From assembly GCF_003334335.1 (NCBI RefSeq), contig NZ_QOWQ01000003.1: DNA of 64,000 nucleotides; one strand, given 5' to 3'. The notes beneath the pieces are model-generated. The model ran no database searches. It had not been told where the DNA came from and was given only the letters and a program-made list of their open reading frames with translations. This DNA comes from Escherichia coli (lineage in GTDB: Bacteria; Pseudomonadota; Gammaproteobacteria; Enterobacterales; Enterobacteriaceae). The translations under genes and the position numbers were made by a program. Positions 6,638-6,968 of the stretch are shown here, piece by piece (position 1 is the first letter of the stretch; every line of letters starts with the position of its first letter).

Positions 6638-6854
6638 CAACCCAGCAAACGCAGGGGCTTTACCGTAAAACATGCTTTTTGCCTGCTTTTAATAAGCATA
6701 GACCCTGATGTGTGGGTTAACAGGCACGCTAAGAATTAGGTATCTCATTGTTAGATAATGGTTATTATCTAAGGAGCATTAAGGCTGTGATGAAAAAGAA
6801 AAAGTTGTATTGAAAATGACTATTTAAGAGATAGGTAAAAAAGTGCAGCGTTCA

Positions 6855-6968
6855 GAAATAAGAAAACCCTTAAGTCTGTGCGACACAGGCTTAAGGGTTT
6901 CTACCCCATCCGGCGCTTATCTCCGGCACTCTCAGTGGCTTAGCTCTTGAAGGGGCGATAAGAATAAT
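6855..6968 (-). ncRNA. rydB: Candidate small RNA locus (position of RydB between sufA and ydiH); ends uncertain
   Basis: Intergenic, non-coding; a long GC-rich hairpin (about 6864-6900) followed on the minus strand by a U-rich run gives a minus-strand intrinsic terminator. In E. coli K-12 the sRNA RydB is annotated in this spacer; I cannot verify exact ends or strand from sequence alone. Confidence 0.4.

Follow-up and report, generated by a model that had tools for sequence, protein, structure and literature searches.

The spacer between ydiH and sufA in Escherichia coli holds a long hairpin that is followed on the minus strand by a U-rich run, which raises the question of whether this structure forms the 3′ end of a small RNA, the terminator of ydiH, or both. 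We analysed a 64,000-nt stretch of E. coli K-12 DNA containing the spacer (the window; MG1655 coordinates equal window positions plus 1757812, from the sufA alignment). Across its 547 nt the spacer matches E. coli K-12 derivatives at 100% identity, and 5413 of 5426 complete E. coli genomes contain 80% or more of it. The preliminary description had placed the RydB locus here, which is borne out by the MG1655 annotation and by a match to the Rfam family RF00118 (rydB) covering model positions 1–61 of 61 on the minus strand (window 6956→6896; 81.6 bits, E = 9e-18). The match passes the curated gathering score of 50 bits, and RF00118 is the sole Rfam family in the spacer, also at a permissive threshold. 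The locus is the same gene as RydB (b4430; synonyms tpe7 and IS082 according to PMC2515195), at its K-12 position between ydiH and sufA, and ‘candidate sRNA’ was too weak a label for an established, annotated sRNA. The distances described also hold, with the ydiH stop (7122) 221 nt above the hairpin and the sufA start (6574) 290 nt below it. A plus-strand ORF of 35 codons (6843–6950), antisense to RydB, found no support as a gene. Elsewhere in the window, above-threshold Rfam matches were obtained for RprA (12560–12667, plus, 118.5 bits), STnc540 (37341–37499, minus, 67.4 bits), the Phe leader (41340–41464, minus, 75.0 bits), and ES036 (58407–58449, plus, 55.5 bits). The features discussed below are collected in Table 1.

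Table 1. Positions of genes, signals, and RNA ends around rydB, in window coordinates.
Feature	Position	Strand	Remarks
menI	7410–7820	minus	
ydiH CDS	7122–7310	minus	upstream neighbour of rydB, same strand
Upstream motif AATCGCAGTTTGTGTTAAAA	6988–7007	minus	about 41 nt before P1; like a MarA/SoxS/Rob box
Predicted extended −10, TGaGATTAT	6964–6972	minus	TG at 6972–6971, GATTAT at 6969–6964
rydB, MG1655 annotation	6901–6968	minus	MG1655 1764713–1764780; 68 nt, 6968→6901
Mature RydB as supported here	6896–6956	minus	61 nt; full-length RF00118 match and Term-seq end
Hairpin	6864–6900	minus	lower stem 11 bp, C·A mismatch, upper stem 5 bp (CUGUG/CACAG), loop UCG
Mapped 3′ end	6895–6896	minus	between C6896 and C6895, inside the duplex
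U-rich tail	6853–6863	minus	from GGG: UUUUCUUAUUUCU (9 U in 13)
Promoter-like ATCACA-16-GATAAT	6764–6791	minus	about 60 nt past the U tract
sufA CDS	6206–6574	minus	downstream neighbour of rydB, same strand

The hairpin itself is confirmed. On the plus strand the palindrome reads AAACCCTTAAG t CTGTG cga CACAG g CTTAAGGGTTT, exactly as first worded, and both the sequence and its folding bear out that the minus strand has the form of an intrinsic terminator, a stem-loop followed by a U-rich run. The minus-strand RNA, AAACCCUUAAG-C-CUGUG-UCG-CACAG-A-CUUAAGGGUUU, forms 11 + 5 bp around a single C·A mismatch and continues into UCUUAUUUCUGA; its lower stem consists of three A–U pairs and then CCCUUAAG/CUUAAGGG, and UCUUAUUUCU lies directly 3′ of the stem. 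Folding of the region, which the preliminary description had proposed as a check, gave −22.0 kcal/mol compared to a shuffle mean of −8.1 (z = −6.15), with 0 of 200 shuffles as good. The lower-stem arms CCCTTAAG and CTTAAGGG, at 6867–6874 and 6890–6897, each hold the self-complementary CTTAAG, and the pattern CCCTTAAG-N10–30-CTTAAGGG has a single occurrence in the window, where chance would give 0. The plus strand folds well too, but is then followed only by UUUCUACCCC, and no plus-strand gene converges on the hairpin in E. coli. In Escherichia, other bases break up the U tract (UUUUCUUAUUU), and the stem is only half G–C with one mismatch, while the Citrobacter loci have 6–7 uninterrupted U after the stem. 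An automated promoter/terminator scan of 6400–7400 called no terminator, this hairpin included, probably because its rule disallows a single stem mismatch. The minimum-energy fold of 6852–6968 also pairs GGAGAUAAG, in the RydB inner loop, with the tail CUUAUUUCU; since Citrobacter and Salmonella have different tails, we rejected the idea that this pairing is conserved.

We then asked to which gene the hairpin belongs. The RydB inner hairpin GCCGGAGATAAGCGCCGG was scanned in one genome per species, which gave 120 loci, 105 of them with a RydB-like body. The same hairpin, at the same spacing from the body, is found at 26 of these loci, in Escherichia, Salmonella, Citrobacter, Silvania, and Leclercia, each time with a U run after the stem. 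In the alignment of these loci the 17-position helix is 93% paired and six pairs show compensatory changes. Covariation was assessed by five measures; no shuffle out of 500 was as good for four of them and 10 of 500 were for the count of further pair types, and all five lay above every slid control. Identity across the five genera is 99% in the lower-stem arms and 96% in the RydB body, compared to 70% in the upper stem and 51% both in the loop and in the sequence past the U tract. Meanwhile the neighbours change. The order is ydiH–rydB–sufA in Escherichia; in Citrobacter a LysR-family gene lies 80 nt upstream of rydB, with sufA downstream and without ydiH; in Salmonella ydiH, rydB, and STM1368 are oriented → → ←, with a convergent transporter gene past rydB (PMC2515195); and in Silvania and Leclercia menI lies 54–74 nt upstream of rydB, again without ydiH, with an integrase gene downstream in Silvania. 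Because the linkage to rydB holds across four gene contexts, we assign the hairpin to rydB and not to ydiH or sufA.

In the wider collection, a hairpin with a U run is present within about 100 nt of the body in 77 of the 105 RydB-family copies. From lineage to lineage these hairpins share no sequence relationship, which is what a replaceable terminator module would be expected to show. Within the five genera, the lower stem appears to be read sequence-specifically, since ordinary terminator stems drift with compensation, as the upper stem does here. Such constraint would be in keeping with a processing signal, though it does not prove that the stem is one.

The 3′ end of RydB has been mapped in vivo. 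Term-seq (Adams 2021, PMC7815308) reports a single 3′ end here, 1764708 on the minus strand (window 6896), in all three growth conditions, with ...GGGGTAGAAACC before it and CTTAAGCCTG after it. The RF00118 model stops at this same base, which lies five bases into the hairpin's 5′ arm and seven beyond G6956:U6903, the final pair of the closing helix; the published end and the model end thus coincide, and the hairpin lies outside the Rfam model save for its first five bases. The curated Term-seq tables hold no 3′ end at the U tract (1764400–1764699, window about 6588–6887) and no Rho termination region in 1764400–1764999. With an end at 6896 and none at the U tract, the abundant form of RydB does not contain the hairpin, so that of the options left open by the preliminary description the hairpin as 3′ end of the sRNA does not hold for this form. 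Rapid processing of a precursor could hide an end at the U tract. For two of the three conditions (1 and 2), the Term-seq scores of rydB are 2.17 M and 4.14 M, compared to 2.2 M and 0.93 M for ssrA, 1.2 M and 3.9 M for csrB, 0.39 M and 0.46 M for ssrS, 7.5 M and 8.6 M for ffs, and 0.18 M and 0.08 M for lpp (PMC7815308). In these two conditions the rydB read score is within the range of tmRNA and CsrB.

The mature RNA supported by these data is 61 nt long. Its closing helix P1 pairs 6956–6952 with 6907–6903 and is followed inward by two hairpins, and the molecule ends in a 7-nt 3′ tail, AGAAACC. The 68-nt K-12 annotation is off at both ends compared to this species, and both its 3′ end (6901) and the 105-nt Salmonella annotation conflict with the end at 6896. 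The K-12 and Salmonella records would therefore need correcting, as the evidence points to a 61-nt RydB without its terminator. The locus, its association with a terminator (PMC12306157), and the 3′ end (published supplement) are already known; the absence of the terminator from mature RydB and the misplacement of both annotated ends may not have been spelled out before.

On the 5′ side, sequence conservation leads us to infer a rydB start at C6957/G6956, where both P1 and the Rfam model begin. All 26 loci conserve the block TGAGAT.ATTCTTAT immediately ahead of the body, and among 96 family members drawn from the two sequence types (see below), 63 have a −10-like hexamer ending 7–8 nt before P1, far above other offsets. 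The stretch on which a start at 6968, as annotated, would depend lacks conservation across genera. The Cappable-seq supplements have no entry near the rydB locus. CUUAUC (6962–6957) could pair with the loop GAUAAG only in a transcript that begins at 6968 as annotated; this pairing was set aside because a start at 6956/6957 is more likely. Further upstream, AATCGCAGTTTGTGTTAAAA resembles a MarA/SoxS/Rob box. The position of this motif is conserved across genera, with the counterpart TTAGCAA-N3-TTGCTAA at the same position in Pantoea, and Sodalis-type copies carry a CRP-like TGTGA-N6-TCACT there. The marbox/soxbox consensus with two mismatches allowed has 11 matches in the window compared to 18 expected, so that a match alone is uninformative; positional conservation and one array study suggest a putative box. 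RydB was SoxR-dependent in a paraquat time series (PMC2064960), and in Salmonella rydB is repressed by ppGpp (PMC3963941). On the other side of the hairpin, the hexamers ATCACA and GATAAT were assigned to sufABCDSE in a published screen (PMC3946193).

Together, these data make it likely that the hairpin terminates rydB, that this stop shields the suf control region, and that the precursor is then cut to the 61-nt RNA. RNA polymerase would start at about 6956/6957 from the promoter of rydB itself and transcribe the 54-nt three-helix body; the hairpin with its U tract would begin 2–3 nt after the body, and release would be expected near 6858–6862. The predicted precursor, from 6956 to about 6858, consists of the body plus the hairpin with 1–2 unpaired bases between them. 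The same stop would also catch read-through from ydiH, and it would shield the suf control region, which starts within about 60 nt, from the very active rydB promoter. In this layout, 380 nt and a single stop signal separate a promoter of tmRNA level from the tightly regulated suf operon downstream, and the automated scan found no other terminator-like site in 6400–7400. If the hairpin is the terminator, it follows that the end at 6896 must come from processing. The precursor of roughly 100 nt would not accumulate, and the cut would leave a 61-nt RNA ending in C6896, with the stem-loop and the U tail lost.

The favoured route for this cut is a double-strand cleavage by RNase III in the invariant lower stem. 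The pairs C6897:G6867 and C6896:G6868, invariant in the 26 loci, are the two pairs between the predicted staggered cuts, which lie 29 nt apart; of these, the side at the 3′ end (6896) is the one that has been mapped. By in vivo rules, stems that undergo RNase III double cleavage are cut so that two paired positions, usually with at least one G–C, lie between the staggered cuts (Altuvia et al. 2018, PMC6212723). These stems are similar in that the RydB end lies in a duplex with two C–G pairs between the predicted cuts, and the predicted spacing falls in the reported range of 16–1080 nt; they differ in that neither C6895 nor U6866 is a known rnc-dependent 5′ end. In the Gordon 2017 supplements rydB goes unmentioned. 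With 17 positions the stem is short for RNase III unless it is stacked on P1, which would leave roughly a full helical turn to either side of the cut. Nearly as good an alternative would be an endonuclease cut followed by 3′-to-5′ trimming that comes to a halt 7 nt short of the closing helix, the distance at which RNase II and PNPase stall.

Several other readings of the hairpin were weighed against termination followed by removal. A functional RydB in the form of the full transcript of about 100–113 nt, keeping the hairpin and the U tail as classic Hfq-binding sRNAs do and decaying to a stable 61-nt product, is favoured by the 105-nt Salmonella annotation, hairpin included (PMC2515195), and a survey of palindromic elements links rydB to a Rho-independent terminator (PMC12306157); the lower stem is, moreover, as conserved as the body. 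We nevertheless consider this unlikely, as the only curated 3′ end is at 6896, with the abundance of a housekeeping RNA and none at the U tract, the 61-nt body is what the Rfam family models, other lineages keep the body but lack the hairpin or carry unrelated ones in its place, and RydB is classed as Hfq-independent with low Hfq enrichment. The converse reading, in which the hairpin is chiefly a maturation signal, its conserved lower stem serving only to direct the cut at 6896, and the polymerase reads through it or stops elsewhere, has to account for a U run in 26 of 26 loci, with 6–7 uninterrupted U in Citrobacter, and for the terminator-like hairpin that follows the body in most family members of other lineages as well. 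A very active promoter 380 nt upstream of suf would also need a stop, and no other candidate was found. The contrast between 99% identity in the lower stem and 70% in the upper stem, an end inside the duplex with a geometry that fits RNase III rules, and the lack of a recorded 3′ end at the U tract in curated Term-seq would all suit it, and yet we give this reading a low probability.

The remaining readings detach the hairpin from rydB or from RNA. If it mainly terminated the ydiH (or menI–ydiH) mRNA, as the preliminary description had allowed, rydB would lie within the 3′ UTR of that transcript. The hairpin has the same orientation as ydiH and lies 221 nt past its stop, no curated 3′ end is present between ydiH and the RydB end, and a weak, U-less hairpin (about 7066–7089) is all that intervenes. 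This option is nonetheless highly improbable as the primary role, since the hairpin stays by rydB in the Citrobacter, Silvania, and Leclercia loci without ydiH, and the conserved promoter-like block directly precedes the RydB body in all these loci. It is equally hard to credit that the palindrome acts as DNA, whether as a suf/rydB protein-binding site, a REP-like repeat, or an insertion hotspot: its upper stem and loop vary in length and sequence with pairing kept, which argues for selection on a folded strand instead of half-sites, the palindrome is single-copy, and the U run is on the rydB strand. This has to be set against the CTTAAG in both nearly invariant arms, the presence of IS1397 at the base of the palindrome in one E. 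coli isolate, and the position of the palindrome next to the suf control region. A REP/BIME repeat was rejected, since the 64-kb window has one copy (0 expected) and the spacer is found at a median of one place per E. coli genome. Termination at the U tract followed by removal of the hairpin thus remains our preferred reading.

We compared RydB with known classes of RNA. Like Rho-independent sRNA terminators, such as that of RprA (12560–12667), RydB has a stem-loop and a U run right behind a short non-coding gene on the same strand, with compensatory changes. It differs from canonical terminators in that the lower stem is conserved in sequence as well as pairing and the Escherichia U tract is interrupted. 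RprA and other Hfq-binding sRNAs retain the terminator in the mature RNA and in the family model, whereas abundant RydB ends before it; with a mature end at 6896 that precedes the stem-loop, RydB is not an Hfq-binding sRNA with a retained U tail, and it is set apart from terminator-retaining sRNAs. The preliminary description had pointed to Hfq binding data as a check. The literature lists RydB as Hfq-independent (PMC3933206), with weak enrichment in Salmonella Hfq coIP, where the reads in control and Hfq samples were 4 and 10 for RydB compared to 5 and 245 for RydC (PMC2515195). Both observations fit an RNA without a terminator U tail, and loss of the terminator would explain Hfq-independence, as the U tail bound by Hfq would be gone.

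Stable housekeeping RNAs are made as 3′-extended precursors that are then cut and trimmed. The Term-seq ends of ffs (4.5S), ssrS (6S), ssrA (tmRNA), and rnpB (RNase P RNA) lie off a U tract and have very high scores, like that of RydB, although this is an analogy of pattern only. We propose only tentatively that RydB, instead of being a conventional base-pairing sRNA, is an abundant, stable, structured RNA matured in the manner of housekeeping RNAs, with the lower stem as a dedicated processing signal, probably for RNase III cutting a helix in which this stem stacks on P1, and presumably with a conserved partner. If this is true, processing would leave a three-helix RNA of 61 nt with invariant loops, present in 1–3 copies per genome across Enterobacterales.

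RydB-like bodies of two sequence types occur across Enterobacterales (loci L002–L121 of our scan). Two or three copies are present in several genomes of Pantoea, Erwinia, Rouxiella, Serratia, Enterobacter, and Raoultella (e.g. L020/L021, L028/L029, and L083, and also L033/L034, L044/L045, L055/L056, and L061/L062). All tested copies score above the Rfam rydB threshold, the divergent type with 51–67 bits. Among 97 distinct family sequences, both partners have changed in 30, 21, 4, 2, and 7 sequences at the five P1 pairs. The invariance of the inner CCGG/CCGG hairpin is by construction, as it is part of the exact 18-mer used for collection. In the same 97 sequences the loop of the short middle helix takes a hairpin insertion of variable length, with covarying pairs such as CACAU/AUGUG and CGUU/AACG, and this covariation-backed insertion is missing from the Rfam consensus. 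Gene contexts in the family are heterogeneous, and most copies look free-standing; a cis-regulatory role based on conserved neighbours was rejected for this heterogeneity. No phage record matched the rydB region. A mobile origin was likewise rejected, as the plasmid matches were mislabelled chromosomes or megaplasmids and those outside Escherichia were to the body only. Megaplasmid records of 0.5–1 Mb in Pantoea, Rahnella, and Klebsiella (H25–H35) carry a RydB body without the E. coli-type hairpin.

RydB has been described as a multicopy negative effector of rpoS (10.1101/310631; 10.64898/2025.12.22.696124) and as having no known targets (PMC11230228). The accessible RydB literature gives no mechanism or verified target. 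The terminator-less form, the constrained lower stem, and the wide multi-copy family are starting points for studying RydB function.

Some further observations were made around the locus. About 35 nt past the ydiH stop, the minus strand at 7066–7089 can form a weak 7-bp hairpin (ACCUGGA/UCCAGGU, 10-nt loop), with no U run after it and no mapped 3′ end reported there. In E. coli SC434 (NZ_LR778142.1, 1826–3260), a copy of IS1397 (IS3 family) with a GTT duplication at window 6897–6899 splits the RydB body from the hairpin exactly, in a single record among the matches listed. In Silvania hatchlandensis, an integrase-like ORF of 428 aa converges on rydB from about 280 nt past the hairpin, which suggests that islands may insert on the 3′ side of rydB in Silvania; no repeat of the hairpin was found within 11 kb around that locus. 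Finally, Rouxiella and Serratia sp. M24T3 have a RydB-type copy without a detectable terminator (L034 4932–4999, L045 386–453, and L099 585–652, all minus) about 40–85 nt upstream of an ORF beginning MAIKKYGQAHWEGDIK, which we take to be OsmC-like, and this arrangement hints that these copies could act as a 5′ leader.
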